Shown: in pieces, positions 9,087 through 60,411 of the stretch
Layout: every line of letters begins with the position of its first letter
Numbering within the stretch: the first letter of the stretch is position 1
Assembly (NCBI GenBank): GCA_030429345.1
Contig: JAUIFJ010000013.1
Location: 13,812-77,811, forward strand
Origin: a bacterium
GTDB lineage: Bacteria; CAIWAD01
DNA: 64,000 nucleotides
Direction of reading: 5' to 3'
Program-made: the position numbers and the translations under genes
Notes under the pieces: generated by a model
Databases searched by the model: none
What the model saw: only the letters and a program-made list of their open reading frames with translations
What the model was told of the DNA's origin: nothing

Positions 9087-9110
9087 GGGCTAGCAGGCAT
9101 GACCAAGAGA

Positions 9111-11498: not shown

Positions 11499-11517
11499 TA
11501 CATCACTCCATAAATGA

Positions 11518-19407: not shown

Positions 19408-20469
<1,062 letters not shown>

Positions 20470-20473
20470 GCCC

Positions 20474-21723: not shown

Positions 21724-21746
21724 TGAAGGTATACGCGGTGACACAA

Positions 21747-21879
21747 TCGCTATCGCTATCGGGATCGCTATCGCTATCGATGTTTCGTCCTGCCCGGAGA
21801 GCAGCGCAATCCGTCGACCGGACACAGTGCTGCGAAGGAAATACATCGATAGCGATCCCGATAGCAATAGCGATAGCGA
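21747..21879. repeat. Long imperfect inverted repeat built from ATCGCT/ATAGCG hexamers (37-nt arms, 59-nt spacer)
   Basis: Left arm 21747-21783 is TCGCTATCGCTATCGGGATCGCTATCGCTATCGATGT. Right arm 21843-21879 is ACATCGATAGCGATCCCGATAGCAATAGCGATAGCGA. Paired by hand, 32 of 37 positions are complementary. It fills the mreD-mrdA intergenic space. Confidence 0.85.
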
Positions 21880-21904
21880 CGGGGTGTCGTGATGCAGAAG
21901 GTGT

Positions 21905-40592: not shown

Positions 40593-41940
40593 CAAACCCG
40601 GCCTCTATGTCCACACGGTGGGCTGCGCCAAGAACCTGGTCGATTCGGAAATGCTGGCCGGCCTGGCCGGGGAGCGCGTGCGCCTGGTCGATGAAGGCGA
40701 GCAGGCGGACCTGATCGTGGTCAACACCTGCGGCTTCATCGACGCCGCCAAGACCGAGAGCATCGACGCCGTCATGGAGGCCGTGCAGCTGAAGGGCGAG
40801 CAGCCCGGGCGCAAGGTCTTCGTGATGGGCTGCCTGAGCAAGCGCTACCGGGAAGAGATCCGCGCCGAGATCCCGGAAGTCGACGGCGTATACGGAGTCG
40901 GCGAGTTCCAGGCCGTGCTGCACGACGCCGGGCTTTCCGGAGCGGCCAGCGTGCCGCCGGAGCTGGAAGTCTTCGAGCGGCGTACCCTGCTCGGCCCCTC
41001 GCACAGCGCCTACCTGCGCATCTCCGACGGCTGCAACCAGCACTGCACCTATTGCGCGATTCCCGGTATGCGCGGCCGCATGGTCAGCCGGCCCTTCGAG
41101 GACCTGCTGCACGAGGCGCGCTCGCTGGCCGGGCGCGGAGTGGTCGAGCTGAATGTGATCGGGCAGGAGATCTCGAGCTACGGCGAGGATCTGGGCGCCA
41201 ACCGCATCGGCGAACTGGTGCGCGAGCTGGGGCAGCTGCCGATTCCCTGGATCCGCCTGCTCTACAGCCATCCTCCCAAGGTCGACCGCGCCTTTGCCGA
41301 GGCCATCTCCGAAGCGCCCTCCGTCCTGCCCTACCTGGACTTTCCCGTGGAACATGTCAGCGGGGCCGTGCTGCGCCGCATGGCGCGCAAGGGCAATGCC
41401 GAAAGCCTTGCCGGGACCATGCGCATGCTGCGCGAGGTCAATCCGGGCATGGTGATCCGCACCTCGATCATCGTCGGGTTTCCGGGAGAAAAAGAAGAGC
41501 ACGTGCAGGAGCTGCTGGACTTCATGGAGTACAGCCCCTTCGACCGGCTGGGCGTTTTCTGCTACAGCCCGGAAGAGAACACGCCCAGCTTCCGCTACCC
41601 GGACCAGGTGCCCAGGGAAGAGGCCGAAGAGCGCAAACGCCGCGTGATGGAAAAGCAGATGGAGCTGAGCCTCTCCGCCAACCAGGACCTGATCGGGCGG
41701 GAAGAGTGGGTGCTGGTCGACGAGGTGGATCCGCAGGCCGGCATTTCGGAAGCGCGCAGCTGGCGCGACGCCCTCGAGATCGACAATACGGTGGAAATCC
41801 AGACCGCCTGCCAGCCGGGCAGCTTCGTTCCGGTGCGCTATGTGGACGCCGGCGAGTACGACCTGCGCGCCGAAAAGCTGGACCGCGAGCCGCAGGGGAA
41901 CCCCGGAAAGGGGCCGGGAGTCCACCCTGTCAGGACCTAA
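40585..41940 (+). CDS. rimO: Ribosomal protein S12 methylthiotransferase (radical SAM, MiaB/RimO family)
   Basis: LYVHTVGCAKNLVDSE, radical-SAM CNQHCTYCAIP, C-terminal TRAM-like region. Overlaps ftsY by 8 nt. Confidence 0.8.
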   Translation: MSSKPGLYVHTVGCAKNLVDSEMLAGLAGERVRLVDEGEQADLIVVNTCGFIDAAKTESIDAVMEAVQLKGEQPGRKVFVMGCLSKRYREEIRAEIPEVDGVYGVGEFQAVLHDAGLSGAASVPPELEVFERRTLLGPSHSAYLRISDGCNQHCTYCAIPGMRGRMVSRPFEDLLHEARSLAGRGVVELNVIGQEISSYGEDLGANRIGELVRELGQLPIPWIRLLYSHPPKVDRAFAEAISEAPSVLPYLDFPVEHVSGAVLRRMARKGNAESLAGTMRMLREVNPGMVIRTSIIVGFPGEKEEHVQELLDFMEYSPFDRLGVFCYSPEENTPSFRYPDQVPREEAEERKRRVMEKQMELSLSANQDLIGREEWVLVDEVDPQAGISEARSWRDALEIDNTVEIQTACQPGSFVPVRYVDAGEYDLRAEKLDREPQGNPGKGPGVHPVRT

Positions 41941-41953
41941 TGCAGGAGAGTGT

Positions 41954-43264
41954 ATGCGATTGCTCCAGTTGCTGGGCCTGAGCCTGCTGGCGTCCGGCCT
42001 GCAGGCGGCCAGTTTCACGGATCGGCAATGGCAGCCCGACTTCCAGGTCGAGCTGCAGGATTATTTCCCCGACGAGACCTCGCCCCGCCGCACGGTCTTC
42101 ACCTGCATCTTCAGCAATGCGGACCTGCAGTACCTGCGGCGCGGCGGGGAAAGCATGCCCCGCAACCTGAGCGGCTACACCTTCGAGGAAGGGCAGGAAG
42201 AGCTGCCCTTCGCCGCGCGCTACGAGATCAGCCTGGAAGTCTTCGAGCTGGATGAGCGCGAGCGCAAGGGGCGCAACGTGACCGGCGACTACGGCCGCTG
42301 GCTGGTGGCGGCTCCCGACTACGAGAGCACGCTGGACCGCAAGGAGCTGCGCTGGCATCCCTTCCAGGTCGATCTGCCCCCCGGCGACTACATGTGGTGG
42401 ATCGAGTTCCAGGACCTCAACACGCGGCGCAGCTACCGCGAGGACGGCAGGATGACCGTCCACGAGCCCGGGCCGGGCTGGGAACTGGGCCGGCTGTGGA
42501 AGACCCAGGACAGCCGGGACGAGGCGGAGAATCCGCTCGAGCTGCGCCCCGCCCCGCCCCGCGGGCTGGAGGACGGCAGCACTTTCCGCGTCTACTACCA
42601 GGTGCGCAGCGGGAAGGGGGACCGGCTCGAGCTGGGCTCGCGGATCCTCGACGGCCGCGGCAAGGTGCGGCACGAGAACCACGTCGAGAGGGACTACCCG
42701 CAGGGCGTGTCGCACAACCAGTTCCAGATTCCCCTGCAGGAGCTGGGCGCGGGCGAGTATACACTGGAATTGAGCCTGGACGACGGGGCGCACAAGAGGA
42801 CAAGCAGCACGCGCTTCAACGTGCGCTGGCAGAACGGCCCCGTATCACGGGAAGACCTGGACACGGCCATAGCCCAGCTGCGCTACATTGCCGGCCGCCG
42901 GGACCTGAAGGACATGCAGAACTCGCGGCCGCCGCACAACCGCAACCTCTTCGAGCAGTTCTGGGAGCGCTACGATCCGGATCCGGAAACGGAGGAGAAC
43001 GAGCTCAAGGAAGAGTACTACGACCGCGTCGCCGTCAGCAACGCCAGTTTCGCCTGGGCCCGCTTTCCCGGCTGGAAGTCGGACCGCGGCCGCGTATACA
43101 TTCTTTACGGCGAGCCGACCACCCGCGAGTTCTACGAGGAAAGCTTCGAGAAGCCGGCCATGGAGCGCTGGGTCTACGCCGAAAACGACCGCGAGTACTA
43201 CTTCGTCGACGAGCACGGCTTCGGCGAGTTCCGCCTGGTGCCGGAACTGGAGCTGCAGCGGTGA
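41954..43264 (+). CDS. GWxTD domain-containing secreted protein
   Basis: ATG at 41954 follows AGGAGAG. Signal peptide MRLLQLLGLSLLASGLQAAS. C-terminal PGWKSDRGRVYILYGEP is the GWxTD motif. Confidence 0.7.
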   Translation: MRLLQLLGLSLLASGLQAASFTDRQWQPDFQVELQDYFPDETSPRRTVFTCIFSNADLQYLRRGGESMPRNLSGYTFEEGQEELPFAARYEISLEVFELDERERKGRNVTGDYGRWLVAAPDYESTLDRKELRWHPFQVDLPPGDYMWWIEFQDLNTRRSYREDGRMTVHEPGPGWELGRLWKTQDSRDEAENPLELRPAPPRGLEDGSTFRVYYQVRSGKGDRLELGSRILDGRGKVRHENHVERDYPQGVSHNQFQIPLQELGAGEYTLELSLDDGAHKRTSSTRFNVRWQNGPVSREDLDTAIAQLRYIAGRRDLKDMQNSRPPHNRNLFEQFWERYDPDPETEENELKEEYYDRVAVSNASFAWARFPGWKSDRGRVYILYGEPTTREFYEESFEKPAMERWVYAENDREYYFVDEHGFGEFRLVPELELQR

Positions 43265-47511: not shown

Positions 47512-49053
47512 ATGATTCACCGCCCCGCACTGGGTCTCCTGTTCCTGGGAACCTGCCTTGCCGGCCCGCTGCACGCCCTGCGCTGGCAGCCCGCCGCGCT
47601 GGATTTCGGCACGCGCAGCGTCGGTCAGCCGGCAACAGCCACCGTCTGGCTGGTCAATGACGGCAGCGAGGCCATGGACCTGCCCACCCTGAGCACGCAC
47701 CTGGAAGGCCTGGACTGGCAGATTCAGGGCGGCAGCCTTGCTGCCGGCGACAGCCTGGAACTGGCACTCGACTGGACCCCGTCGCAGAACATGCCCTATC
47801 TGGGCGCGCTGGCGGCAGAGGGCGATACCGGCGGTTGGGGGCTTTCCCTTTCCGGTTCCGGCGATCTGGCTGGCAGCACCTGGGACGGAAGCTATGGCCT
47901 GAGCGGAAACGCCCTGCGCGACCACCTGCGCACGGTGGTCCGCCAGCACAGCGAACTGGGCTATACCACGGCGCGCACGATCATGTTCGGCAGCCTGGAC
48001 AACGTGGGCGGCTGGGTCGAGAGCGTGTATACGGGTTTCCAGCTGCAGACCTCCGGCATTCCGGATCACACGGTGATGAACACCGAGCACACTTGGCCGC
48101 AAAGCCTTTTCAACGGCGCGGACAGCATTCGCACGGACCTGCATCACCTTTTCCCCTGCAAGAGCAACATCAACAGCAGCCGCGGAAACCTGCCTTTCGG
48201 CAACGTGGTCAACAGCTCGAGCGGCTTTCCCACGGGAGGAGCGGACCGCGGCACCGATGCCAACGGCACCACCGTCTTCGAGCCGCGCCTGTCTCACAAG
48301 GGGGACTGCGCGCGCTCCATGTTCTATGTCGCCCTGCACTACGGCAACCTGAGCGGCTTCCTGGGCTACCAGGAAGCCACCCTGCGGGACTGGTCGGAGC
48401 TGGACCCGGTCAGCCAGAAGGAGCGGGATCGCAACGACGGCATCGAAGGCGCCCAGGGCAACCGCAATCCCTTCGTCGATCACCCGGGCTTCCTCGATCG
48501 TTTGGCCACGCTCTCCGGCAGCAACGCCAACCTGCCGGCGGTGCAGGAACTGGCGGCCTTTCCCGCTGGGGGGCTGGACCTGGGCAGCGGCACGGAAGCC
48601 GAACTGGCAGGCGGCCTGCTGCTCTGCAACACGGGCAGCCAGGTGCTGCACTTCGGCGCGCCCCTGCTCAGCCCGGCGGTCTTCGTCCTGGAGGGCTTCC
48701 CGGCCAGCCTGGCGCCCGGCGAGAGCGCGCAGTGCGTGATCCGTCCCGCGGCGGGCGAGGAAGGCGGCCTGCTGGCCAGCCTGCAATACACCAGCGAGGC
48801 GGGATCGGCGAGCCATGTGATCCAGGCCCTGGTCGAAAGCGCGCAGCCCCAGCCGCTCGAACTGCAGATCCGCATCGAGAATTTCCAGGTGGTGCTCGAA
48901 TGGAACGAGGTTCCCGGCGCCGGCGGCTATCGCATCCAGAGCCGCCTGCCCGGCGAGGGCTGGGGCGACACGAGCTTCACGACGAATCTCGCGGCCCAGC
49001 TGATCTGGGACGAGTACGAGGAAATCCGCTTCTACCGCGTGCTGTCGGAATAG
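47512..49053 (+). CDS. Secreted endonuclease I (EndA/Vvn family) flanked by Ig-like domains and a C-terminal Fn3-like domain
   Basis: Signal peptide LGLLFLGTCLAGPLHA. Ig/ASH-like ALDFGTRSVGQPATATVWLVNDG. Endonuclease I motifs NTEHTWPQS, DLHHLFPCKSNINSSRGNLPFG, KGDCARSMFYVALHY and GNRNPFVDHPGF. The final 68 aa, LELQIRIENFQVVLEWNEVPGAGGYRI..RFYRVLSE, are the C-terminal domain. Confidence 0.85.
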   Translation: MIHRPALGLLFLGTCLAGPLHALRWQPAALDFGTRSVGQPATATVWLVNDGSEAMDLPTLSTHLEGLDWQIQGGSLAAGDSLELALDWTPSQNMPYLGALAAEGDTGGWGLSLSGSGDLAGSTWDGSYGLSGNALRDHLRTVVRQHSELGYTTARTIMFGSLDNVGGWVESVYTGFQLQTSGIPDHTVMNTEHTWPQSLFNGADSIRTDLHHLFPCKSNINSSRGNLPFGNVVNSSSGFPTGGADRGTDANGTTVFEPRLSHKGDCARSMFYVALHYGNLSGFLGYQEATLRDWSELDPVSQKERDRNDGIEGAQGNRNPFVDHPGFLDRLATLSGSNANLPAVQELAAFPAGGLDLGSGTEAELAGGLLLCNTGSQVLHFGAPLLSPAVFVLEGFPASLAPGESAQCVIRPAAGEEGGLLASLQYTSEAGSASHVIQALVESAQPQPLELQIRIENFQVVLEWNEVPGAGGYRIQSRLPGEGWGDTSFTTNLAAQLIWDEYEEIRFYRVLSE

Positions 49054-49121
49054 CGGCAGCGGGCGGTATCGATTTCGGAATCGAGCGAGGTCGAAGTCCC
49101 ACTTTGTACCTGGTAACCGCA

Positions 49122-49159
49122 ACGGCCCCCCGGCAAGATCTCGCCGGGGGGCCGTTTTC
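49122..49159. terminator. Hairpin terminator between the convergent endonuclease I gene and beta-helix gene 1
   Basis: 13-bp stem ACGGCCCCCCGGC / GCCGGGGGGCCGT followed by TTTT on the plus strand. The U-tract is weaker on the minus strand. Confidence 0.75.
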
Positions 49160-49177
49160 GTGTTTCGAGGTCTTTGT

Positions 49178-52100
49178 CTATTCGGTGACGGCTTCCACGT
49201 AGTAGTAGCTGTTGAAGGCCGGCGCGGGAGCGGCCCAGCTCTCGCCGACGAAGCTGCCGCTTTCGTCGATGGCGAATCCGGCCCAGGGGGCGGCGCTGCT
49301 GTAGACATTGTAATACAGGACGCCCGGCACCGTCGTCCATTCCAGCTCCACCAGGCCGTCGGCGACGGTGATCGAGGTGATCACCGGGCGGCAGGATTCC
49401 GTGTTCCAGGGGTCGAAGCTGACCACGCCGAGCGTGCCGTCCTCCTCGTCGTCCCGGATCCGCGCGTCGATGGCGGAGGCCGTGGTCGCGCCCCAGAAGT
49501 TGCCGCAGGCGGACACGTTCTGCGTGCTGCTGTTGTTCAGGGCGAAGCCGCCGTTGTCATGGATGCAGTTGCCGCCGTCGCCTGTCGGACAGGCGCCCAT
49601 GTCGAGGCCGCTGCCCGTGTGCAGCAGGCCGTCGCCCGCGTTGTGGCTGATGTGCGTGCCGCGCAGGCTGAGGCTGAAGCCGGCATGGTCGATGCCCACT
49701 CCCGCGCTGCGGCTGACTTCGCAGTTGTTGAGCGCCATCCAGTTGGACTGGTAGCAGCGCAGGGCCGCCTGTCCATCGCCGGCGTGGCGTAGACGCAGGC
49801 CGCTCAGGTTTCCGACGCCTTCATAGTGGGAATAGCCGTAGAAGTAGAGGCCGATCCAGTCTCCGGGTGATCCGGCGCTGGGGCCGTCGCCGTTGGTGTC
49901 CCCGTCCACATCGTCCGCGGCGAAGGAGCAGAAGGTGATCGGCTGGGTACCGCTGCCGTTGGCGATCAGCGTGCCGTAGGCCAGCAGCTGGGTCCCGGGC
50001 TGGGCCTTGAGGGTCTGCCGGCCATTCAGGCTCAGGCTGACATTGTCATTGATCGTGATCCCCCCCGTCATCACGAAGGGAAAGCCCGGGCCGCCCTGCT
50101 CCCAGCTGCGGTCGGAGCTCACGCTGCCGTTGAGGGCGAAACCGTTGAAGGCGTTGCCGCTTCCCGTGTTTCCGGAATAACTGGTCAGGGTGACACCTTC
50201 CAGCCTGGCGCCCCAGCTGCCGTTGTCCTCGAAATGGTTGTTGCTGAGCCAGGGCGAGGCGCCTGTACAGGAAACACCTTCGGAAAGGTTGTCGTGCCAC
50301 AGGCTGCTGGACAGGGAGGGACTGCATTCGGAGGCCAACAGCCCCGGCCCCGAGCTGTAGCCGACTTCGCAGGAGTCGATGGTCGCCCAGTTGCTCTGCG
50401 ACAGGCGGATGTTGGCGCTGCTCGAATCGGCGTCGCCGCCGTAATACACGCGGTTGTGCTCCAGATGAACCACGCCCTCGTAGAAGCTGTTGCCGTAGCC
50501 GTAGATGCCGCGCCAGTCGCCGGGCATCGGCTGCAGGGCGCCGTCGCCGTAGGTGTCCCCGCCCACGCTGTCGTCCTTCCAGGACGTGAGCACCGTCGGT
50601 TCTGCCGGAGTGGCCACGCTCTGCAGGCTGCCATAGGTCATGAAGCGTCCGCCTGCTTCTGCCTTGACCAGGGTGCCCGCCGGGAGGGACAGAGTCGTGT
50701 TGTCGCTGATCACCAGCTCCCCGGTGAGCAGGAAGGGGAAGGAGTGCTCCGGATGGGACCAGTTGCGGTTGGTGGTTACCGTGCCGTCCAGGCCGAAGCC
50801 GTTGACGGCATTGCCGCTGCCCGTGTTGCCGCTGTAGCTGGTGACGGTGACGCCTTCCAGCCGTACGCCGTATGCGCCGTTGTCGAGAAACCCGTTGTGC
50901 GTGATCCAGGGGGCGGAGGAGCCCGTGCAGTGCAGGCCATGGTCGCCGTTGTCGGCCAGTATGCTGTTGGACAGGGTGGGGCTGCACTCGAAGACCTGCA
51001 GGCCGGTGTCCAGGCTGTACTCGATGCGGCTGCTGTCGATGGTGGCCCAGTCCGAGCGGTAGAGCCGCAGCCCGCCTTCCTCTTCCAGGCCGCCGTAGCG
51101 CAGCAGGGTGTGATGCATGCTGATCACGCCCTCGTAGAAGCTGTGGCCATAGCCATAGACGCCCCGCCAGTCGCCGGGCGCGGGGGGAATCGGACCATCG
51201 CCCAGGGTGTCGCCGCCGTGGCTGTCGTCGCTGCTGCTGGTCAGCACGACGGGCTCGGCCAGGGTGCCATTGCAGAAGGTGCTTCCGTAGGACAGGATGC
51301 GCGCGTCCGGCATGCCCTTGACCAGGCTGCCTGCGGGCAGGGTCAGGCTGGTGTTGTCGCTGACGGTCAACTCGCCTGTCAGCAGGTAGGGGAAGCCTTG
51401 GTCGGGGTGCGAAAGTGTGCGGTTGGAGGTCAGGGTCCCGTTGAGCGCGAAGGCGTTGACCCCGTTTCCGGTGCCCTCATTGCCCGAGTAGGACGTGACG
51501 GTAATGGCGTCCAGGAAGACTCCGTGGGCGCCATTGTCGTTGAAGACATTGTCCGTCAGCGAGGGAGTGCCCGTGTTGGCGCGATAGCCGTCCAGCGCGT
51601 TGTCGCGCACGAGGTTCGCCGTCAGGCCGGGACTGCAGGCGTAGCTGTAGACGCCGTGGCCGGCATGGTGGCGGATCTCGCTGTCGTGAATGGTGGCCCA
51701 GTCGCAGCGGTCGAGAGTCAGGCCTTGTGCATAGGTTGAGTCTCCTCCGGCATAGCTCAGGGTCGACCAGCTCATCGAGAGCGCGCCCTCGTAGAAGCTG
51801 TGCCCGTAGCACCAGATGCCTGGCCAGTCGCCGGGCGACGCGCTGCCGCCGTCGTTGCCCGTGTCGCCGCCGACGCTGTCGTCGTGGATGCTGGTCAGGG
51901 TCACCGGGTAGCCGGCAAGGCCATTGAGGTAGAGGGTGCCGTAGACGCGCAGCAGGCCCTCGCTCATGCCCTTGAGCACACTCAGCGAATCGACGGTCAG
52001 GGTGGTGTTGTCGGATACGGCCACCTCGTCGGCGAGCACGATGGGGAAGAGGCTGGAAGCCGGCGTGGCCCAGGTCTGGTTGGCGCTGGTGCTGCCATTG

Positions 52101-52810
52101 ACCGCCAGGCCGTTGAGAGCGTTGCCGCTGCCCGTGTTGCCTGTATAAGAGCCTAGCGTGACCCCTTCAAGGCGCGCTCCCCAGCTGCCGTTGAAGAGAC
52201 AGGCGTTGTCGCGGAAGGTGGGAGCGCCGCCGTTGCAGTGAGCGCCGTTGCCCGCGTTCTGCTCGAAGACATTGTCCACCAGCCAGGGGCTGCAGCCCGT
52301 GCTGAACAAACCCGGCCCGGCACTGAAAGCGATCGAACAGTTGTCCAGGTAGATGTAGTTGCTCGAATTGGCGTGGAGCCCCGCGTTCTGGTTCGCGCCC
52401 GGGCCGCCGCCGTAGTGGATCTGGCAGAAATCCAGGTCCCCGGCTCCTTCATAGTGGGCGGCGCCGTAAAAATCGATGCCGTCCCAATCGCCGGGGGCCG
52501 GTGTGCCGTCGCTGCCGCTGATGCCTTCCCCGACGCTGTCGTCGTGGATCGAGGTGAAGACGATGGGCGTGTCCGCCGTCCCCGGCGCCAGCAGGGTGCC
52601 GAGGACCGTGAGGCGCACGCCGGGAGCGCACTTGAGCACCACGCCCGGTTCGAGGCTCAGGGTGGTGTTGTCGCCAATCGTCAGGTCGTCGGTGGCGTGG
52701 TAGGTGCCGGCGCTCCAGGTCTGGCCGCCGACCTCCCCGCTGACCTCGGTGCTCGCCTGCGCCAGGCCGGCCAATGCCGGAAGCAGCAGGCAGATCAAGC
52801 TCGCTCTCAC
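49178..52810 (-). CDS. Five-module beta-helix exoprotein, paralog 1 (1,210 aa)
   Basis: GTG start with AAGGGGA upstream. Signal peptide MRASLICLLLPALAGLAQAS. Five DDSxGGDTxxDG..PGDWxG modules, four GNTGSGNxxNG motifs, the NosD/CASH-like cap ACGNFWGATTASAIDARIRDD..VSFDPW, and a C-terminal domain ..LVELEWTTVPGVLYYNVYSS..YYYVEAVTE. Confidence 0.85.
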   Translation of the reverse strand: MRASLICLLLPALAGLAQASTEVSGEVGGQTWSAGTYHATDDLTIGDNTTLSLEPGVVLKCAPGVRLTVLGTLLAPGTADTPIVFTSIHDDSVGEGISGSDGTPAPGDWDGIDFYGAAHYEGAGDLDFCQIHYGGGPGANQNAGLHANSSNYIYLDNCSIAFSAGPGLFSTGCSPWLVDNVFEQNAGNGAHCNGGAPTFRDNACLFNGSWGARLEGVTLGSYTGNTGSGNALNGLAVNGSTSANQTWATPASSLFPIVLADEVAVSDNTTLTVDSLSVLKGMSEGLLRVYGTLYLNGLAGYPVTLTSIHDDSVGGDTGNDGGSASPGDWPGIWCYGHSFYEGALSMSWSTLSYAGGDSTYAQGLTLDRCDWATIHDSEIRHHAGHGVYSYACSPGLTANLVRDNALDGYRANTGTPSLTDNVFNDNGAHGVFLDAITVTSYSGNEGTGNGVNAFALNGTLTSNRTLSHPDQGFPYLLTGELTVSDNTSLTLPAGSLVKGMPDARILSYGSTFCNGTLAEPVVLTSSSDDSHGGDTLGDGPIPPAPGDWRGVYGYGHSFYEGVISMHHTLLRYGGLEEEGGLRLYRSDWATIDSSRIEYSLDTGLQVFECSPTLSNSILADNGDHGLHCTGSSAPWITHNGFLDNGAYGVRLEGVTVTSYSGNTGSGNAVNGFGLDGTVTTNRNWSHPEHSFPFLLTGELVISDNTTLSLPAGTLVKAEAGGRFMTYGSLQSVATPAEPTVLTSWKDDSVGGDTYGDGALQPMPGDWRGIYGYGNSFYEGVVHLEHNRVYYGGDADSSSANIRLSQSNWATIDSCEVGYSSGPGLLASECSPSLSSSLWHDNLSEGVSCTGASPWLSNNHFEDNGSWGARLEGVTLTSYSGNTGSGNAFNGFALNGSVSSDRSWEQGGPGFPFVMTGGITINDNVSLSLNGRQTLKAQPGTQLLAYGTLIANGSGTQPITFCSFAADDVDGDTNGDGPSAGSPGDWIGLYFYGYSHYEGVGNLSGLRLRHAGDGQAALRCYQSNWMALNNCEVSRSAGVGIDHAGFSLSLRGTHISHNAGDGLLHTGSGLDMGACPTGDGGNCIHDNGGFALNNSSTQNVSACGNFWGATTASAIDARIRDDEEDGTLGVVSFDPWNTESCRPVITSITVADGLVELEWTTVPGVLYYNVYSSAAPWAGFAIDESGSFVGESWAAPAPAFNSYYYVEAVTE

Positions 52811-52830
52811 TGTGGTCCCCTTTATGGCTG

Positions 52831-52860
52831 TAAAAATCCCCGCCCCTTCGTGGGGCGGGG
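52831..52860 (-). terminator. Canonical intrinsic terminator between paralog 2 and paralog 1, 21 nt upstream of the paralog 1 start
   Basis: On the minus strand: CCCCGCCCC-ACGAA-GGGGCGGGG followed by ATTTTTA (complement of 52831-52837). Confidence 0.7.
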
Positions 52861-52950
52861 AGTCTCAGTGTAGCCAATTGACAAAAATGTCTCCATACGT
52901 CAAATGCCTTAGTGGTCCCGGCGAAAAAAGTTCGGCCGGCAAGGTTGCGG

Positions 52951-55900
52951 CTACTCCAGCACGGCTTCGACCTTGTAGTAGGTATTGACGCCGGGGGTGC
53001 TTTCGCTCCAGCTGTTTCCGTCCAGCGCGCCGTCCAGGTCCACGCTGTAGCCGCCCCAGGGCATTGTGCTGCTGTAGACGATGTAGGAGCTGGCGCCCGC
53101 AACCGGCGTCCAGGTGAGCTGCACCTGGCCATCGGCGACGAGGATCTCGAAGATCACCGGCGCGCAGCTGGTGGCGTTCCAGGGGCTGAAATCGACGGCG
53201 CCCTTGGCGGCATCTTCCTCGTCATCGTAGATCAGGGCATCGACGCCGGCGGCGTCGAAAGCGCCCCAGTAGTTGCCGCAGGCCTCGAGAGGATCGGCGG
53301 TGTCATTGTAGAGCGCAAAGCCTCCGTTGTCCGAGATGCAGTTGCCGCCGGCCGCCCCGTCGCAGGCGCCCATTGCCAGGCTGCCGCTGTTGAAGCGGAT
53401 GCCGTCGCCGCCGTTGTCGCTGACGACGCTGCCGGTCAGGCTGAGGGAGCTGGCGCTGACCTCGATGCCATGACCCTGGTGATTGTCGACCAGGGAGGCC
53501 GTCACTTCGACCGCCGCGGCTGCCAGGACATCCAGGCCGGCCTGGCCGTCTCCGCCGTAGGAGATGCGGCAGTTTCTGAGGGTGGCCGCGCCCTCGTTGG
53601 TGCCGCCTCCGTCAATGACCAGGCCTTTCCAGTCGCCAGGCTGGCCGCTGCCGGGACCATCGGAATTGCTGTCCCCGTCCACGCTGTCGTCGGCGATGGA
53701 GGTGAAGGTGATCCGCTGGGCGCCCTCGCCGATGGCAAGGAGCGTGCCATCGATCGTCAGGCTCATGCCGGGCTGGCTCTTGAAGGTCGTTCCCGGCAGC
53801 AGCGTGAGCTGGCGGTTGTCGGGCACGATCACCTCCCCGGCCAGCACGAAGGGAAATCCGCTGCCGCTGGACAGGCTGTCGAGGAAGATGGTGCTGCCGC
53901 GCAGGCCGAAACCATTGACGCCGTTGCCGCTGCCGGTGTTGCCCAGATTGGTCGAGATGCGGCAGTCGTCGAAGAGGACGCCGTACTGGCTGTTGTTGGC
54001 GAAGTGGGCCTGGCGTAGATCCGGCTGGCTGGTTCCGGTTGCCAGGAGGCCGTGTTCCAGATTGTACTCGTAGCGGCCGCCGCGGATCTCGGGGCTGGCC
54101 GGCACACAGCGCAGGCCGCTGGCGCTGCAGGCGACCGCGCGGCAATCCGTGAGGAAAGCCTGGTCGGAGCCTTCGAGCTCGATGCCGCCGACCAGTCCCC
54201 CGCTGCCGCCGCCGTGATACAGATGCAGGCTTGCCAGGTCCACGGTTCCTTCATTGACCCCAATGCCATAGGCACGAATGCCAAGCCAGTCGCCAGGCAT
54301 GCCCGTGCTCGGGCCATCGGAGTAGGTATCACCGCCAAAGGCGTCTTCCCGCCAGCTGCAGAGGCGCACGGGATTCATCTCGTCGGCATTGCAGTTGAGG
54401 CGGCCGTATACGAGCAGCTGGCTGCCGTCCTCGCCCTTGATCAGCGTGCCCGGCGAAAGCTCCAGCACCCGGTTGTCGGCTACGATGGCCTCGCCCGTCA
54501 GGATGAGCGGAAAAGCGCTTTCGGTGGACCAGATGCGGTTTGCCTGCGCCGAGCCCTGGATCGCCAGGCCGTTGACGCCGTTGCCGCTGCCGCTGTTGCC
54601 GCTGTAGTCGGTGAAGTCCGCGTTCTCCAGGAGCGCCCCGTAGCCGGTGTTGCCGCTGAAGGTGTTGTCGTACAACTCGGGAGCTCCCTGGTTCGAGTAG
54701 AGGCCGCGATCGCCGTTGTCCTCGAAGACGCAGCCCTGGAAGACCGGGTCGGAGTTCAGGTTGGCGAAGCCATCCTGCAGGGCGCGGTCGAAGCGGCAGC
54801 TGTCGATCTGCGCCAGCAGGCTGATCGTCGAATAGACGCTGCCCGTGGAACCGCCGGCGCTGCCTCCGTAGCGGAACCAGGTGTGCGCCAGGTCCAGGGT
54901 GCCCTCGCTGGTGCCGATGCCGTCCGCCGCCACGCCGATCCAGTCGCCGCCCGCAGCGGGGGTGGCGTCGCCGGGCTTGCTGTCTCCGCCCCAGCTGTCG
55001 TCGCGCAGGGAGGTGAAGCGCACCGGGTTGCCGGACACGCCGTTGGAGACCAGCGCGCCGTATACGAAGAGTTCGCCGGCGCTCTCGCTCTTGAAGAGGC
55101 AGCCCGCTTCAAGAGTCAGCAGGCGGTTGTCGGGCACCAGCAGCTGCCCATTCAGGATGTAGGGAAACTCGCCGGCTCCGGGGCCGAAAGTGCGGCTGCC
55201 GTTGACCGTGCCGTCGACGGCCAGCCCGTTGTAGAGATTGCCGCTGCCGGCATTGCCGCTCATGTCCTGCAGGTTGCAGTCCAGCAGGCGGCCGCCATAG
55301 GCGCCGTTGTCCTCGAAGTGGCAGTTGTTGACATGGGGCGTCGCCGAGTCGACGAAGAGCCCGTCGCCCGCATTGGCATCGAAGGTGCAGCTGTCCAGGT
55401 CCAGCTCGCAGCTCTCCGCCTGCAGGCCATGGGCGAAGGCGTGATCCACCCGGCAGTTTTCCAGTTCCAGGACGGCGGTGTTCTGGGCATGCAGCCCTCC
55501 GTGATCCACCCCGCCGGCGTAGGCGACCCGCAGGTGAGACAGCAGGCCACGGCCCTCGGAAGTGCCCACGCCGTCGAAGCGCAGCCCGGACCAGTCGCCC
55601 GGCTGGGCGCTGCTGGCGGCACCGTCGCCATTGGTGTCGCCGCCGACGGCGTCGTCGGCCAGCGAGGTGAAGACGATGGGGTCATCCGCGGTGCCATAGG
55701 CGAAGAGCGTTCCGTAGATCCAGAGCAGGCCGCCCGGCGCGCCTTTCAGGGTGCTGCCCTGAACCACATGGAAGCCGATGTTGTCGTTGGCGCGCAGGGT
55801 ATCGGTCAGCACCAGCGGAAACTGGGCGCCGGGCGTTCCCAGGCTGTCGCCGGTGCTCATGCTGCCGTGGATGCCCAGGCCGTTGATGCCGTTGCCGCTT

Positions 55901-56583
55901 CCCGTGTTGCCCAGGGTGTTGTTGAGCGTGACATCGTCCAGGCGGCCGCCGTAGCTGCCGTTGTTGTCGAACTGGCAGCCCCGGACCTCGGTCGAGCCCC
56001 CCAGGCACTGCAGGCCGTGTTCCGCGTTGTCGCTGAAGAAGCTTTCCACCAGTTCGATCGTACCTGCATCTGTCAACAGGCCGGTGCCGGCGCAGTCGCG
56101 GATCTCGCTGTGCAGCAGATCCACCGTATTCGGATTCAGGCAGTACACGCCCGCGTTCTGCGTCGCCGCCGTACCGCCGGCCCAGGCGAGCCCCGCGTAG
56201 CGGAAGTCGATCCGCCCTTCCTGGGTGCCGCTGCCGTCGGTGGCAATGCCCGCCCAGTTGCCGGGCGCGGGAACACCGCTGGAGCCGGCGATCACCTCGC
56301 CCACGCTATCGTCGTGCATCGAGGTCAGCGAGACGCCCACGCTGTCGCTGCCGAAAGCGACCAGGCTGCCGAAGACTTCCAGCAGGACGCCGTCGGCGAA
56401 CTTGAGCACGGCCCCGTCCTGCAGGGTCAGCGAGGTATTGTCGTTGACCCAGGAATCGGAGCTCACCAGCCAGGTGCCGGCGGAAAGCGTGCTGCTTCCC
56501 AGGTGGCCGCTGATCTCGGTGTAGGCCGCCAGGCTGTGTGTCATGCCCAGCAGCAGGAAAACGTGAATCCAAAGGGTTCGCAT
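52951..56583 (-). CDS. Five-module beta-helix exoprotein, paralog 2 (1,210 aa)
   Basis: ATG start with AGGAGA upstream. Signal peptide MRTLWIHVFLLLGMTHSLAA. Same five-module order as paralog 1. Cap ACGNYWGAFDAAGVDALIYDD..VDFSPW and C-terminal domain ..QVQLTWTPVAGASSYIVYSS..YYKVEAVLE. Confidence 0.85.
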   Translation of the reverse strand: MRTLWIHVFLLLGMTHSLAAYTEISGHLGSSTLSAGTWLVSSDSWVNDNTSLTLQDGAVLKFADGVLLEVFGSLVAFGSDSVGVSLTSMHDDSVGEVIAGSSGVPAPGNWAGIATDGSGTQEGRIDFRYAGLAWAGGTAATQNAGVYCLNPNTVDLLHSEIRDCAGTGLLTDAGTIELVESFFSDNAEHGLQCLGGSTEVRGCQFDNNGSYGGRLDDVTLNNTLGNTGSGNGINGLGIHGSMSTGDSLGTPGAQFPLVLTDTLRANDNIGFHVVQGSTLKGAPGGLLWIYGTLFAYGTADDPIVFTSLADDAVGGDTNGDGAASSAQPGDWSGLRFDGVGTSEGRGLLSHLRVAYAGGVDHGGLHAQNTAVLELENCRVDHAFAHGLQAESCELDLDSCTFDANAGDGLFVDSATPHVNNCHFEDNGAYGGRLLDCNLQDMSGNAGSGNLYNGLAVDGTVNGSRTFGPGAGEFPYILNGQLLVPDNRLLTLEAGCLFKSESAGELFVYGALVSNGVSGNPVRFTSLRDDSWGGDSKPGDATPAAGGDWIGVAADGIGTSEGTLDLAHTWFRYGGSAGGSTGSVYSTISLLAQIDSCRFDRALQDGFANLNSDPVFQGCVFEDNGDRGLYSNQGAPELYDNTFSGNTGYGALLENADFTDYSGNSGSGNGVNGLAIQGSAQANRIWSTESAFPLILTGEAIVADNRVLELSPGTLIKGEDGSQLLVYGRLNCNADEMNPVRLCSWREDAFGGDTYSDGPSTGMPGDWLGIRAYGIGVNEGTVDLASLHLYHGGGSGGLVGGIELEGSDQAFLTDCRAVACSASGLRCVPASPEIRGGRYEYNLEHGLLATGTSQPDLRQAHFANNSQYGVLFDDCRISTNLGNTGSGNGVNGFGLRGSTIFLDSLSSGSGFPFVLAGEVIVPDNRQLTLLPGTTFKSQPGMSLTIDGTLLAIGEGAQRITFTSIADDSVDGDSNSDGPGSGQPGDWKGLVIDGGGTNEGAATLRNCRISYGGDGQAGLDVLAAAAVEVTASLVDNHQGHGIEVSASSLSLTGSVVSDNGGDGIRFNSGSLAMGACDGAAGGNCISDNGGFALYNDTADPLEACGNYWGAFDAAGVDALIYDDEEDAAKGAVDFSPWNATSCAPVIFEILVADGQVQLTWTPVAGASSYIVYSSTMPWGGYSVDLDGALDGNSWSESTPGVNTYYKVEAVLE

Positions 56584-56694
56584 GCGAAGGTCTCCTGTGT
56601 GTCTTTCGGAGGATGGTTTAATAGCGCGGGCCCCTGTCGCCTTGCAGACCGCGCCAGTCCTGACGAGCGCTGCAGACGGGCGGAAGCCCCAAGG

Positions 56695-56722
56695 AACAGC
56701 CCGACTCGAGAGACGGGCTGTT
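56695..56722. other. Hairpin in the paralog 3 - paralog 2 spacer (weak terminator or processing site)
   Basis: AACAGCCCG (56695-56703) / CGGGCTGTT (56714-56722) with a 10-nt loop. There is no good U-tract on the minus (coding) strand. Confidence 0.3.
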
Positions 56723-56745
56723 CTGTTTCAATGGGTCGTGTTTTC

Positions 56746-59700
56746 CTATTCGGGTACCGTTGCCACCACCACGTAGCTGGCCCGCGGGCCGGGGGCGGGG
56801 GCGCTCCAGCTGTTGCCGTCGTAGCTGCCGCTCAGGTCGATCGTGTAGCCGCTCCAGGGCTCCGTGCTGCTGTAGACGGTGTAGTCGATTGCCTCCGGCA
56901 GCAGAGACCAGTTCAGCTCCACGATGCCGTTGACGACCGTGATCTCCAGCTCGAGCACCGGCACCTGCGCCGTGCATTCGGAGTTGTAGGTCGCCGCGTT
57001 GACCAGGCCGTAGGAGGGCTGGTCCACCTGGTGGTTGATCGCCGCCTCGATGGCGGCCGGATCCGCGCTGCCCCAGTAGTTGCCGCAGGCCTCGATGTCC
57101 TGGTTGGAGGTGTTGTTGAGGGCGTAGCCGCCGTTGTCGTAGAGGCAGTTGTTGCCTCCCGCTTCCGAGCAGGATCCCAGGGCGAGGCTGCCCTGGTTGC
57201 ACTGGATGCCGTCATCCGTATTGTCGCGGAAGATGCTTCCCTTGGCGCTTGCGCTGCTGTAGAGGGTGTAGAGGCCGTCGCCCAGGTTGTCCTCGACCCG
57301 GCAATACTCCAGGTGGAGAGACTCCGTATACTCTCCGCGGATGCCGCTTTCCTGCCCGCCGCCGCCGCCATGGGCCACTTCCGTCCACTGCAGGTTGCCG
57401 CTGCCTTCGTTGCCGCTGTAGCCGTGGAAGAGCAGGCCGTTCCAGTAGCCTGCCGTGCCGCTGCTGACGCCGTCGTGGGCCGTATCCCCGTCCACGCTGT
57501 CGTCATCGAGGGAGGTGAAGGTCACACGGCGGATCGCGTTGCCGTTGGAATCCAGTGTGCCGTTGGTGCGCAACTGCGCCCCGTTCATGCCCTTGATCAC
57601 GGTGCCGGCCTGCAGCGAGAGCGTCACGTTGTCGTTGACCGTCGTCTGGCCGGTCAGAACGACCGGGAAGCCGGGTTCCGTACTCCAGCCGGAGTTGACC
57701 TGCACGGTGCCCTTGATGCCGAAACCATCGGTTCCGTTGCCGCTGCCCGTATTGCCGGAAAGGTCCGCCAGCGAACTGTTGTCCATGTAGACGCCGAAGG
57801 CGCCGTTGTCCTCGAAGACGCTGTCGTATACCGGCACGCGGGAGGTGGAGTTGCAGTAGATGCCGTGACGCAGGTTGCTCCGGAAGGCGCTGCGCTCGAC
57901 GAGAGGCGAAGAGGCCGTGGTGGCCACGCCGTCCCGGGCGCAGTCCTGCACCCGGCTGTCGCGCAGATGCGCCCCGTCGCTGTAGTCGATCTGGATGCCG
58001 GCCGTGTTGGCCGCGTTGGCGCCGCCGTGATACAGCTCGCCCCAGGCCATGTCGAGGATGCCTTCGTTGCCCGAATAGCCGTAGACGTAGAGGCCCTTCC
58101 AGTCGCCGGGCTGCCCCAGGCTGGCCCCGTCGCCGTTGGTGTCGCCGCCGATGCCGTCCTCGCGCCAGGAGGCGAAGCGCACGGGCTGGCTTTCCGTGCC
58201 CAGGATGTTCAGCGTGCCGTAGACGCTGAGCTGGCTCTCGTTCTCGCACTTGAACAGCGTCCCCGCGGCCAGGTCGAGCACCGTGTTGTCGTTGACACTG
58301 ACCGTGCCGTGAAGAATGAAGGGGAAGGAGGCGGACACGCCGCTCCAGGTCTGTGATACATAGGTGTTGCCGTTCAGGGCCAGGCCGTTGATGCCGTTGC
58401 CGCTGCCGTCGTTGCCCGAGAAGTCGGTCAGCGCGCTGGAGGTGACCCAGGCGCCGTACTGCCCGTTGGCGTCGAACTGGTTGTCGACCAGGAAAGGGGT
58501 TCCGCTGGAGCAGTGGAAGCCGTTCAGGCCGTTGGCGTTCAGCAGGCAACGGCTGAGGCTGCTGACGCTCTGGTTGGTGCGGACTCCGTGCATCGAGCCG
58601 TATTCCACCACGCAGTCGTCCAGGCTGACCGTCTCGCAGTAGGCCAGGTAGACTGTGGCCTCGCCGCCGGCCACATTGCCGCCGTAGCGGAAGCGAGTGT
58701 AGTCCAGGTCGACGATGCCTTCGTTGCCCGAGTAGCCGTAGGCGTAGAGGCCTTTCCAGTCCCCCGGCGCAGGGGCATCCGATTCCATGGTGTAGGTGTC
58801 GCCGGCAAGGGCATCGTCGCGGTAAGAGCTGAAGACGACGGGGGAGCCGGAGCCGCCCGGAGCCGTCAAGGTGCCGTATACATGGATTTCGCCGTTGTTC
58901 TCGCCCTTGAAGACGCAGCCTGCATTGAGGGTCAGGCTGGCATTGTCGTTGACAGTCAGCAGCCCCGGCAGCAGGTAGGGAAAGGCCGGGTCCCCCTGGC
59001 TCCAGCTGAGCGCTCCGGCGACGGCGCCCTGCACGGCGAAACCGTTGATGCCGTTGCCGCTTCCCGTGTTGCCGCTGTAGTCCGTCATGGTGCAGGTGCT
59101 GAAACGGCTGCCGTAGCGCGTGTTGTCCTCGAAGGAGCAGTCGGTCACGAAAGGCGTGGAACTGGAGGCATTCAGGCCGTCGCGTCCGTTGGCGCTGAAG
59201 GAGCACTGCTGCAGGTCGGGCATGGTCGAAAAGCTGTAGAGGCCGTCGTGGGCGCTGTGCCCGATGCGGCAGTTGCTCAGCGTCTGGTAGTCCGCATACT
59301 GGAGAATGACCGAGGCCCGGCTGCCCGCCTGGCCGCCGTAATACACGGAGGCCCAGGTCCAGGTCCCCGCGCCCTCGTTGCCCGAATAGCCGTAGGTCTC
59401 GATGCCCAGCCAGTCGCCGGGCGAGCCCGTGCTGGCGCCGTCGCTGTTGGTGTCGCCGCCGACGCCGTCATCGGCGATCGAGGTCAGGATCACCTCGGCG
59501 GATCCCGGTCCGCCGTCCATGTCCAGCGTGCCATAGACATAGAGCAGCCCACTGTTCTGGCTCTTGAAGGTGCAGCCCGCTTCCAGGCGCAGGTGGGCAT
59601 TGTCGTTGACCGTCAACTGGCCGCTCAGGATGAAGGGAAAGTTCGGGCCAACGGTCGAAAGGGAATCGAAACCGGTCACCTGCCCCTGCAGGCGCATGCC

Positions 59701-60411
59701 GTTCAGAGTGTTGGCCGACCCCGTATTGCCGCCGTAGCTGCCGATATCGCTGGTGTAGATGTTCGCGCCGTAGCCCAGGTTGTTGTGGAATTCGTTGTCG
59801 CGCACCGAAGGAGCGCCGTTGGCACAGCGGAAGCCGTCGCCCTGGTTGTGCCGGAAGAGGCAATGGTCGAGAAGGTCGTTGGAGAAGTTGGTGCTGAGCC
59901 CCGGACCGGCGCAGTGGTCGATGCTGCTGTAGCGGAACCAGGCGAAATCGCTGTAGGCGCAGTAGATGCCCGCGTTGTCCGAGTTGCCCGCGCCGCCGGC
60001 GTAGGAGAAGTCCGTGTAGTCGAAGTCGACCAGGCCCTCGGCCACCGAGTAGCCGTAGGCGTTGATGCCGTCCCAGTCGCCGGGCTGCGGATTCCCCGTC
60101 GATTCGCTGATCGCCTCGCCCACGCTGTCGTTGTTGCGCGAAGTCAAGGTCACACGGTTGCCCTCCACGCCGTCGGCGTCGAAGGTGCCGTTCACGGTTA
60201 CAAGGACGCCGGGTGCGAACTTCATCACGACGCCGGGCTCCAGGGTTACCTGCTGGTTGTCCGGAATGGTGACATTCCCGGTGACATGGTAGGTGCCGGC
60301 GCTCAAGGTCATGGTGTTCCAGGTGCCGCCGGGCAGTGTCGTGTAGGCTGCCGCGTTCAGGGGCAGGGCAAAGGCCAGTCCGAGCCCGACCAGTCGGGGT
60401 GCGAGTCGCAT
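56746..60411 (-). CDS. Five-module beta-helix exoprotein, paralog 3 (1,221 aa)
   Basis: Start taken at the ATG at 60411 (AGGAGAACCC upstream), giving signal peptide MRLAPRLVGLGLAFALPLNAAA. The 47 extra codons in the track ORF are non-signal. Same module order as the other paralogs. Cap ACGNYWGSADPAAIEAAINHQ and C-terminal domain ..IVELNWSLLPEAIDYTVYSS..YVVVATVPE. Confidence 0.85.
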   Translation of the reverse strand: MRLAPRLVGLGLAFALPLNAAAYTTLPGGTWNTMTLSAGTYHVTGNVTIPDNQQVTLEPGVVMKFAPGVLVTVNGTFDADGVEGNRVTLTSRNNDSVGEAISESTGNPQPGDWDGINAYGYSVAEGLVDFDYTDFSYAGGAGNSDNAGIYCAYSDFAWFRYSSIDHCAGPGLSTNFSNDLLDHCLFRHNQGDGFRCANGAPSVRDNEFHNNLGYGANIYTSDIGSYGGNTGSANTLNGMRLQGQVTGFDSLSTVGPNFPFILSGQLTVNDNAHLRLEAGCTFKSQNSGLLYVYGTLDMDGGPGSAEVILTSIADDGVGGDTNSDGASTGSPGDWLGIETYGYSGNEGAGTWTWASVYYGGQAGSRASVILQYADYQTLSNCRIGHSAHDGLYSFSTMPDLQQCSFSANGRDGLNASSSTPFVTDCSFEDNTRYGSRFSTCTMTDYSGNTGSGNGINGFAVQGAVAGALSWSQGDPAFPYLLPGLLTVNDNASLTLNAGCVFKGENNGEIHVYGTLTAPGGSGSPVVFSSYRDDALAGDTYTMESDAPAPGDWKGLYAYGYSGNEGIVDLDYTRFRYGGNVAGGEATVYLAYCETVSLDDCVVEYGSMHGVRTNQSVSSLSRCLLNANGLNGFHCSSGTPFLVDNQFDANGQYGAWVTSSALTDFSGNDGSGNGINGLALNGNTYVSQTWSGVSASFPFILHGTVSVNDNTVLDLAAGTLFKCENESQLSVYGTLNILGTESQPVRFASWREDGIGGDTNGDGASLGQPGDWKGLYVYGYSGNEGILDMAWGELYHGGANAANTAGIQIDYSDGAHLRDSRVQDCARDGVATTASSPLVERSAFRSNLRHGIYCNSTSRVPVYDSVFEDNGAFGVYMDNSSLADLSGNTGSGNGTDGFGIKGTVQVNSGWSTEPGFPVVLTGQTTVNDNVTLSLQAGTVIKGMNGAQLRTNGTLDSNGNAIRRVTFTSLDDDSVDGDTAHDGVSSGTAGYWNGLLFHGYSGNEGSGNLQWTEVAHGGGGGQESGIRGEYTESLHLEYCRVEDNLGDGLYTLYSSASAKGSIFRDNTDDGIQCNQGSLALGSCSEAGGNNCLYDNGGYALNNTSNQDIEACGNYWGSADPAAIEAAINHQVDQPSYGLVNAATYNSECTAQVPVLELEITVVNGIVELNWSLLPEAIDYTVYSSTEPWSGYTIDLSGSYDGNSWSAPAPGPRASYVVVATVPE

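Follow-up and report, generated by a model that had tools for sequence, protein, structure and literature searches.

Our study examined a 64,000-nucleotide stretch of bacterial DNA (positions 13,812 to 77,811 of contig JAUIFJ010000013.1, assembly GCA_030429345.1; hereafter, the window), and in particular a domain of about 70 residues that closes four adjacent secreted proteins encoded in it, an endonuclease I (EndoI) and three beta-helix repeat proteins (BH1, BH2, and BH3). The terminal domain is of the fibronectin type III (Fn3) kind, and what is seen here is a use of it that is specific to the lineage and restricted in position: the domain itself was already known, and its strictly terminal, tag-like use in Candidatus Delongbacteria, a little-studied phylum, is new. 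Our literature searches turned up no account of a terminal tag of the Fn3 type or of an Fn3-type signal for the secretion system of type IX (T9SS). Judging from the sequences, we tentatively favor a localization role for the terminal Fn3, whether through retention at the surface or through recognition for export across the outer membrane, to which we would give a chance somewhat short of even; any sorting or anchoring role of the domain is something that we infer. The four genes and their terminal domains, with bit scores from a hidden Markov model (HMM) combining both subtypes of the domain, are the following:

47512-49053, plus strand: EndoI gene, 513 aa (open reading frame (ORF); Pfam Endonuclease_1, PF04231, E 1e-32)
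48844-49050, plus strand: EndoI terminal Fn3 (EndoI-type), ending in FYRVLSE and the stop; combined HMM 64.5 bits, tail of 0 residues
49178-52810, minus strand: BH1, 1210-aa protein of beta-helix repeats; has a signal peptide, ends in Fn3 (ORF; Pfam Beta_helix/NosD)
49181-49393, minus strand: BH1 terminal Fn3, ending in YYYVEAVTE and the stop; combined HMM 65.7 bits, tail of 0 residues
52951-56583, minus strand: BH2, 1210-aa protein of beta-helix repeats; has a signal peptide, ends in Fn3 (ORF; Pfam Beta_helix/NosD)
52954-53166, minus strand: BH2 terminal Fn3, ending in YYKVEAVLE and the stop; combined HMM 68.9 bits
56746-60411, minus strand: BH3, 1221-aa protein (from MRLAPRL) of beta-helix repeats; has a signal peptide, ends in Fn3 (Pfam Beta_helix/NosD)
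56749-56967, minus strand: BH3 terminal Fn3, ending in SYVVVATVPE and the stop; combined HMM 62.3 bits, tail of 1 residue

Compared with BH2, the C-terminal domains (CTDs) of the three beta-helix proteins are 49-52% identical (47-52% in further comparisons). Taken alone, this likeness is attributable to paralogy, given a full-length identity of 40-41%. The EndoI domain shares only 23-28% identity with them. When an HMM of the beta-helix CTDs was run against the 574 ORFs of the window, EndoI was its sole non-member match (E 8.6e-5; next E 0.22), and in the opposite direction an EndoI-type HMM, made from 21 CTDs (the window EndoI and 20 homologues, with no beta-helix sequence among them), gave E-values from 3e-5 to 2e-4 for the three beta-helix CTDs (next window ORF, E 0.98). 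The same EndoI-type HMM matched a beta-helix homologue (P0002) across the full domain at E 1.8e-10. With the combined HMM, all four carriers scored 62-69 bits, with matches ending 0-1 residues from the stop, and no further match was obtained in the window. This evidence shows the domain to be homologous across EndoI, BH1, BH2, and BH3. The initial annotation, made from the letters alone, had aligned these four C-termini by eye; the reciprocal HMM matches, exclusive within the window, bear out that proposal, and the coordinates given there agree with the HMM bounds to within a few codons.

The assignment to Fn3 draws on three approaches. AlphaFold predicts six- to seven-stranded sandwiches for the BH2 and EndoI domains (pLDDT 89.7 and 91.9, respectively), and nearly all top Foldseek matches of these models in the PDB are Fn3 domains, with a TM-score of up to 0.79 and a probability of 1.00. 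The BH2 domain matches C. thermocellum 3MPC with a TM-score of 0.78; other matches include the Fn3 of CtXyl5A, a pectate lyase Fn3, Tie1, tenascin-derived scaffolds, and titin, and no T9SS CTD (RgpB, PorZ, or Hbp35) is found among the PDB matches of either domain. At the sequence level, a profile of 22 CTDs recovered 3MPC (E 9.8e-10) and CtXyl5A (5G56, E 7e-8) from the PDB sequences, together with titin and FN3con. The earlier suggestion that the fold was probably Fn3-like is thus upheld by AlphaFold, Foldseek, and the sequence profile alike, and the domain is a bona fide bacterial Fn3. In Pfam, the gathering threshold of PF00041 was not reached, and no fn3 match at E <= 1 was obtained on the four carriers, with only Tissue_fac at E 0.025 on EndoI; indeed, no Pfam or NCBIfam model, including the newer Pfam set with PF28492, covers the last 70 or so residues of the four carriers. 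The terminal domain is a divergent Fn3 subfamily below Pfam detection. A metagenome scan with a five-sequence CTD alignment gave no confirmed match, and a word-index database search with the three beta-helix CTDs alone found nothing; the homologue sets discussed below were gathered with full-length EndoI and beta-helix queries, 120 for each. Known bacterial Fn3 modules (3MPC, the CtXyl5A Fn3 in 5G56, and the fn3/GH85_C repeats) are homologous to the Delongbacteria domain, have the same fold, and share with it the core WxxVxGAxxYxV...YYRVxA. In their own proteins, such modules sit internally between catalytic and binding modules, often in tandem, whereas the Delongbacteria domain is always single, always last, and exchanged with secretion tags.

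The position of the domain was followed in 194 kb of Delongbacteria-lineage DNA, a biased sample in that its loci were found via the domain or its carrier proteins. All 16 domain-bearing ORFs in this DNA hold a single copy that lies no more than 4 residues from the stop. Among the homologues, 23 of the 120 EndoI proteins carry the domain, always 0-3 residues from the end, as do 6 of the 120 beta-helix proteins, so that the strong matches in the 240 homologues are terminal in 29 of 29 cases. The strictly terminal position that had been proposed from four proteins therefore holds throughout the lineage sample, where no internal copy was found, and the terminal, single-copy architecture is confined to Delongbacteria-like contigs as far as sampled. 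No hydrophobic helix of the kind expected for an LPXTG- or PEP-CTERM-like anchor is present at the carrier C-termini, which end directly after the last beta-strand.

The passengers on the lineage contigs belong to at least nine unrelated groups, namely EndoI, an LTD nuclease, beta-helix proteins, an S8 subtilase, a C25 peptidase, a PPAD-like protein, a multihaem cytochrome, and two unknowns, and fusion to unrelated passengers, first noticed in the window, extends well beyond it. Once the domain is removed, they show no BLASTP similarity to one another beyond the expected pairs. Several loci hold more than one carrier: in L001, a Peptidase_S8/CarboxypepD_reg subtilase adjoins a 790-aa protein without a Pfam family; in L037, a cytochrome with five CxxCH motifs adjoins a beta-helix carrier; and in L040, 16 kb encode an LTD/ExeM-like nuclease, an LTD-EndoI protein, a Peptidase_C25 protein with propeptide, and a PAD_porph protein, the domain being last in every one of these proteins, as it is in a 781-aa carrier without a Pfam family in L041. 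Sec signal peptides are present in 10 of the 10 complete carriers that were read, in agreement with the expectation that carriers are always signal-peptide proteins; the PAD_porph gene of L040 runs off the locus, and its N-terminus falls outside this count. In the same locus, positions 17925-22679 encode the gingipain-type C25 peptidase with its propeptide and, at a distance of two small hemerythrin genes, the PPAD-like peptidylarginine deiminase, and both the C25 and the PPAD-like proteins end in Fn3 instead of a T9SS CTD. Gingipain-type C25 peptidases and PPAD are the two signature virulence enzymes of Porphyromonas gingivalis.

The window also encodes three proteins with the classical T9SS tag, as had been noticed in the initial annotation and as PF18962 and a local T9SS-CTD HMM confirm:

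341-601, plus strand: T9SS type-A CTD closing a 657-aa protein whose start lies before position 1 (PF18962, FlgD_ig; T9SS HMM 84.9 bits)
9111-11498, minus strand: beta-helix protein with a T9SS type-A CTD at 9114-9371 (PF18962, local T9SS-CTD HMM)
11518-16929, minus strand: 1803-aa protein with a T9SS type-A CTD at 11521-11778 (PF18962, local T9SS-CTD HMM)

The full gene of the first of these is present in locus L039, the left flank of the window. GC content falls to 0.49-0.51 at 10000-16000, compared with about 0.65 elsewhere; this stretch spans the two large T9SS-CTD beta-helix proteins, and its composition suggests a recent horizontal acquisition of T9SS cargo genes.

None of the four Fn3 carriers matches a Pfam, NCBIfam, or local T9SS model, and the separation of the two modules is complete in the wider material. 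The 120 EndoI homologues comprise 23 with the Fn3, 39 with a T9SS CTD, and 2 with a dockerin-like motif near the C-terminus, and the 120 beta-helix homologues comprise 6, 34, and 2, respectively; a terminal Fn3 is thus found in 29 of the 240, a terminal T9SS CTD in 73, and both in none. Likewise, none of the roughly eight distinct T9SS-CTD proteins in the 194 kb of lineage DNA bears both modules, and the mutual exclusivity with TIGR04183/PF18962 CTDs that was to be expected of a second tag is therefore seen in homologues and lineage DNA alike. Since EndoI proteins of the Fn3 type measure 513-519 aa versus 533-547 aa for those of the T9SS-CTD type, the C-terminal module has been replaced rather than added. 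The two modules coexist within a genome (four Fn3 and three T9SS-CTD proteins in the window, one and two in L041). It had been proposed that the organism uses two separate C-terminal tag classes; two module classes do coexist, and the proposal fails in that the Fn3 has no sequence signature of its own.

The slot that the Fn3 occupies is also used by other modules. In some EndoI orthologues, dockerin-like modules are found there: homologue P0161 has a dockerin (PF00404), and P0163 has a near-identical C-terminus, for which no PF00404 is listed. The window EndoI consists of a signal peptide, an Ig-like "choice-of-anchor D"/ASH region, the Endonuclease_1 domain, and the terminal Fn3, and it gives a weak match to the NCBIfam model choice_anch_D; together with the dockerin-like ends, this indicates that the C-terminal slot behaves as a slot for targeting modules. 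Dockerin has cohesin as its partner, whereas we know of no cognate receptor for the Fn3 that would be comparable. BH homologues in other genomes bear T9SS CTDs.

The T9SS type-A CTD (PF18962/TIGR04183) resembles the terminal Fn3 in being a beta-sandwich of about 70-90 residues at the extreme C-terminus of Sec-exported proteins, in occurring on C25 peptidases, PPAD, nucleases, subtilases, and beta-helix proteins, and in occupying the same slot in orthologues; it differs in that the Fn3 lacks the PNPFNP, GxY, and LLLK motifs and shows no profile similarity to it. The T9SS effectors given in a review (PMC10202324) include gingipain-type C25 peptidases, PPAD, endonuclease, and peptidases, and several Fn3 carriers belong to these classical T9SS cargo families.

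The Fn3 carriers show the anatomy that one would look for in proteins with a C-terminal targeting module. On Sec-exported proteins of this Delongbacteria lineage, an ordinary bacterial Fn3 of about 70 residues serves as an obligatory last, single-copy module, filling the C-terminal slot that in orthologues is taken by T9SS CTDs and occasionally by dockerin-like modules. The role that we consider likeliest is localization following Sec export. The domain could hold the enzyme at the cell surface or in the matrix by binding a surface component, or it could be the element recognized by an outer-membrane export or attachment step; we weight these two options about evenly. BH1-BH3 inherited the domain through tandem triplication, and EndoI carries a separate, older subtype. 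A narrower version, in which the Fn3 constitutes an outer-membrane export or attachment signal class in Delongbacteria, either as a fourth T9SS CTD type or as the tag of a separate pathway, seems to us unlikely, and the same low expectation applies to the mechanism that it would entail, a generic Fn3 fold repurposed and read by position and context with no dedicated motif.

Several observations weigh against a localization role. The conserved residues are those of the generic Fn3 core, namely the Trp of strand B, the Tyr of YRV, and the last strand FYRVxA. A profile search of 1.84 billion representatives returned 8638 hits at E <= 1e-3, the best 146 of which are giant proteins with 4-43 internal tandem copies; of their 1302 domains, 1 is terminal, and Pfam names such internal tandem repeats fn3/GH85_C. 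With the combined CTD profile, 115 internal repeats from other organisms score 40-54 bits, compared with 40-76 for the terminal copies. Internal copies, absent from the lineage sample, are therefore common elsewhere, where the family acts as an internal spacer in thousands of proteins, and the claim of a tag class distinct by sequence does not hold, given that generic internal Fn3 repeats score in the same bit range; the domain is not a distinct tag family, its terminal copies being set apart by position alone. Nor is there a fixed ending: the last residue in 36 carriers is P in 12, N in 6, E in 6, Q in 5, D in 3, R in 2, and H in 2, and the carriers stop 0-7 residues after the last strand [FY][YF]RVxA, with a tail of variable length. 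The terminal Glu had been taken as a possible feature of the tag; it is indeed found in all four window proteins, but a conserved terminal Glu or acidic residue must be rejected as a general feature, with Glu in 6 of 36. An hhalign comparison of the Fn3 CTDs with 13 T9SS CTDs gave a probability of 0.2%, and the fold search likewise detected no similarity between them.

The genomic surroundings add to these points. No gene resembling a sortase, PorU, or an exosortase adjoins the carriers in the gene tables of six loci, contrary to what a co-occurring sorting enzyme would have led one to expect; no conserved partner gene flanks them in any locus examined, and no cleavage motif is apparent at their C-termini. 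It is also important to consider that about 9-10 independent fusion events lie behind the 36 carriers, and that secreted proteins mostly gain domains at the C-terminus; with few fusions and C-terminal accretion as the default, the raw count overstates the weight of the positional statistic. Finally, the loci came to light by way of the domain or its carriers, and hence the frequencies are biased. Taken as a whole, the idea of a second sorting or anchoring tag keeps its support from position, passengers, and exclusivity, and loses that from the terminal Glu, family distinctness, a partner gene, and a cleavage motif.

The alternative that best withstands these data is that the Fn3 is a passive accessory module, a spacer or an aid to solubility or substrate binding, with no sorting role, which we regard as a serious possibility, although short of probable. 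Its terminal position would then reflect the fact that recent gains on secreted proteins are C-terminal, and the domain would have been gained where a T9SS CTD was lost, an account of the position that we hold with the same reserve. Such a module would be inseparable in sequence from generic internal or tandem bacterial Fn3 repeats, as is the case here, and would have as its closest solved relatives the Fn3 modules of cellulosomal enzymes (3MPC, E 1e-9; CtXyl5A, E 7e-8); the lack of a conserved terminal motif and of a partner gene, and the number of independent fusions, only about 9-10, also fit. What it explains less readily is that single-copy, last-domain placement has 0 exceptions in 36 proteins and at least nine passenger groups, that orthologues alternate the Fn3 with genuine targeting modules (T9SS CTDs and dockerin-like modules) in the same slot, and that passengers that are normally extracellular, such as the pro-proteases and the PPAD-like protein, would be left without a recognizable outer-membrane route.

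A second alternative is that the Fn3 adds a fourth CTD type to A, B, and C, as a new export signal of the T9SS or of a T9SS-like system; we consider this quite improbable, and equally so its corollary that the Fn3 is recognized by a PorV/PorP-family shuttle or by the translocon. The Fn3 has the anatomy of T9SS CTDs (a beta-sandwich of about 70 residues at the extreme C-terminus of Sec-exported proteins), it occurs in classical T9SS cargo families in mutual exclusion with type-A CTDs, and a PorV/PorQ-family gene lies in the window. The type-B (TIGR04131) and type-C (ChiA-type, cl41395) CTDs offer a precedent for multiple unrelated C-terminal signal classes, since the T9SS accepts several sequence-unrelated CTD classes within one genome, and a review of the field recognizes types A, B, and C only (PMC10202324). 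Against such a signal stand the absence of the conserved T9SS CTD motifs (B, D, and E for type A) and the hhalign probability of 0.2%, the Foldseek ranking of Fn3 domains rather than the CTDs of RgpB, PorZ, or Hbp35, the failure of the NCBIfam and Pfam T9SS models to match the domain, the lack of an adjoining shuttle gene, and the internal occurrence of the same sequence type in phyla without a T9SS. A divergent type-A CTD is rejected by the hhalign value together with the Fn3 matches of Foldseek. Genes with type-B CTDs are usually followed by a porP/sprF-like gene; for TIGR04131, there was no NCBIfam match, and no PorP/SprF-like neighbor appears in the gene tables of the six loci. For type C (cl41395), the comparison was made through NCBIfam models alone, with no match in the region.

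The remaining explanation, that the likeness is nothing more than paralogy of the three BH genes plus a chance similarity of EndoI, could appeal to the 40-41% full-length identity of the BH genes, to the single copy between purL and EndoI in L042, and to the 23-28% identity of the EndoI domain to the others, and is scarcely credible; we rejected it on the bridging sequence P0002 (E 1.8e-10), the reciprocal HMM matches exclusive within the window, the confident Fn3 models of both the EndoI and BH2 domains, and the recurrence of both subtypes on many other passengers, including the further carriers in L040.

In the region from 47.5 to 60.4 kb, EndoI on the plus strand is convergent with the three tandem BH genes on the minus strand. 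The GC content at third codon positions is 0.85-0.88 in the four carrier genes, which supports the EndoI and BH ORFs as true coding frames, and Sec-type signal peptides are predicted on all four proteins; BH3 corresponds to database protein P0003. A strong, terminator-like hairpin separates the convergent genes, and a second terminator-like one lies 3' of BH2:

49121-49156: terminator-like hairpin, 14 bp with 12 G-C, where EndoI and BH1 converge

Syntenic orthologues of EndoI are found in loci L036 and L042. The Delongbacteria chromosome in L036 has no beta-helix gene downstream of EndoI, and L042, a syntenic relative, has a single, frameshifted beta-helix gene between purL and EndoI (8531-12180 of that locus), from which BH1-BH3 (49178-60411) are understood as a tandem triplication, the three proteins being 40-41% identical over their full length. 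Several internal modules make up each BH protein. Pfam finds five Beta_helix stretches in each, and the translations show recurring "DDSVGGDTNGDG...PGDWxG" motifs interspersed; the precomputed Pfam set assigns PF28492 (Beta_helix_4) to them.

The organism was assigned to Delongbacteria because its MreB is 88-90% identical to those of Candidatus Delongbacteria metagenome-assembled genomes (MAGs) and because a complete Delongbacteria chromosome, OY760505.1 (locus L036), has the same gene order, TIM-SecG-TPR-EndoI; the related locus L037 is labelled Delongbacteria_CAIWAD01. The phylum name is mentioned in 21 papers retrieved from the literature, and in none of the 15 listed does it stand in the title or abstract. 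About 74 kb of the source genome were read, that is, the window plus L039. The public taxon labels are inconsistent for L001, L002, and L003 (CAYFPS01, CAZMSD01): MAGs labelled "uncultured Bacteroidaceae" have an MreB that is 90% identical to that of the Delongbacteria-like window, and the cluster of P0122 (90% identity) mixes the labels Calditrichota, Cloacimonadota, and Delongbacteria. The remaining window genes are those of an ordinary chromosome (purN, purH, mreBC, PBP2, xseA, ftsY, tpiA, and purL). Two further features deserve mention:

41840-43264, plus strand: GWxTD-domain protein (PF20094), upstream of the TIM-SecG-TPR-EndoI block and kept in L042
5127-6152, plus strand: outer-membrane protein of the PorV/PorQ family, a T9SS shuttle family (167 bits with NCBIfam NF033709, cut-off 90; gene call in L039)

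The PorV/PorQ-family gene and the T9SS-tagged proteins together show that T9SS-type machinery exists in the organism; this gene is not linked to the Fn3 genes. It belongs to a plus-strand gene string at 2356-9086 that begins with a CarboxypepD_reg-Plug-TonB-dependent-receptor-like gene (2356-5130) and continues, after the PorV/PorQ-family gene (5127-6152), with two genes without Pfam matches (6149-7561 and 7561-8205) and a TAtT-domain protein (8202-9086), and which may form an outer-membrane module associated with the T9SS. For the C25 peptidase of L040, identity with PorU was considered and rejected, at 46-50 bits against cut-offs of 420-450; it is an Fn3 carrier. NCBIfam release 20 contains models for a "putative T9SS sortase PorU2" (NF052324) and for "PorV2" (NF052325), to which the proteins studied here match weakly (50-62 bits against cut-offs of 325-450). 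These models show that curators already suspect a second T9SS-like sorting system, and our literature search found no paper describing a PorU2/PorV2 system.

In current practice, homologues of gingipain-like, PPAD-like, subtilase, and nuclease proteins are counted as non-secreted when they lack a T9SS tag. Should the terminal Fn3 direct localization, it would represent a new signal class in the secretion biology of phyla related to the Fibrobacteres-Chlorobi-Bacteroidetes (FCB) group, it would show that a generic fold is able to serve as a sorting tag, and it would change the prediction of secretomes in uncultured phyla. If it is merely accessory, it would provide a clean case of a promiscuous domain expanding in one lineage and replacing T9SS tags, and even then the combined HMM is a practical aid for the annotation of Delongbacteria proteins.

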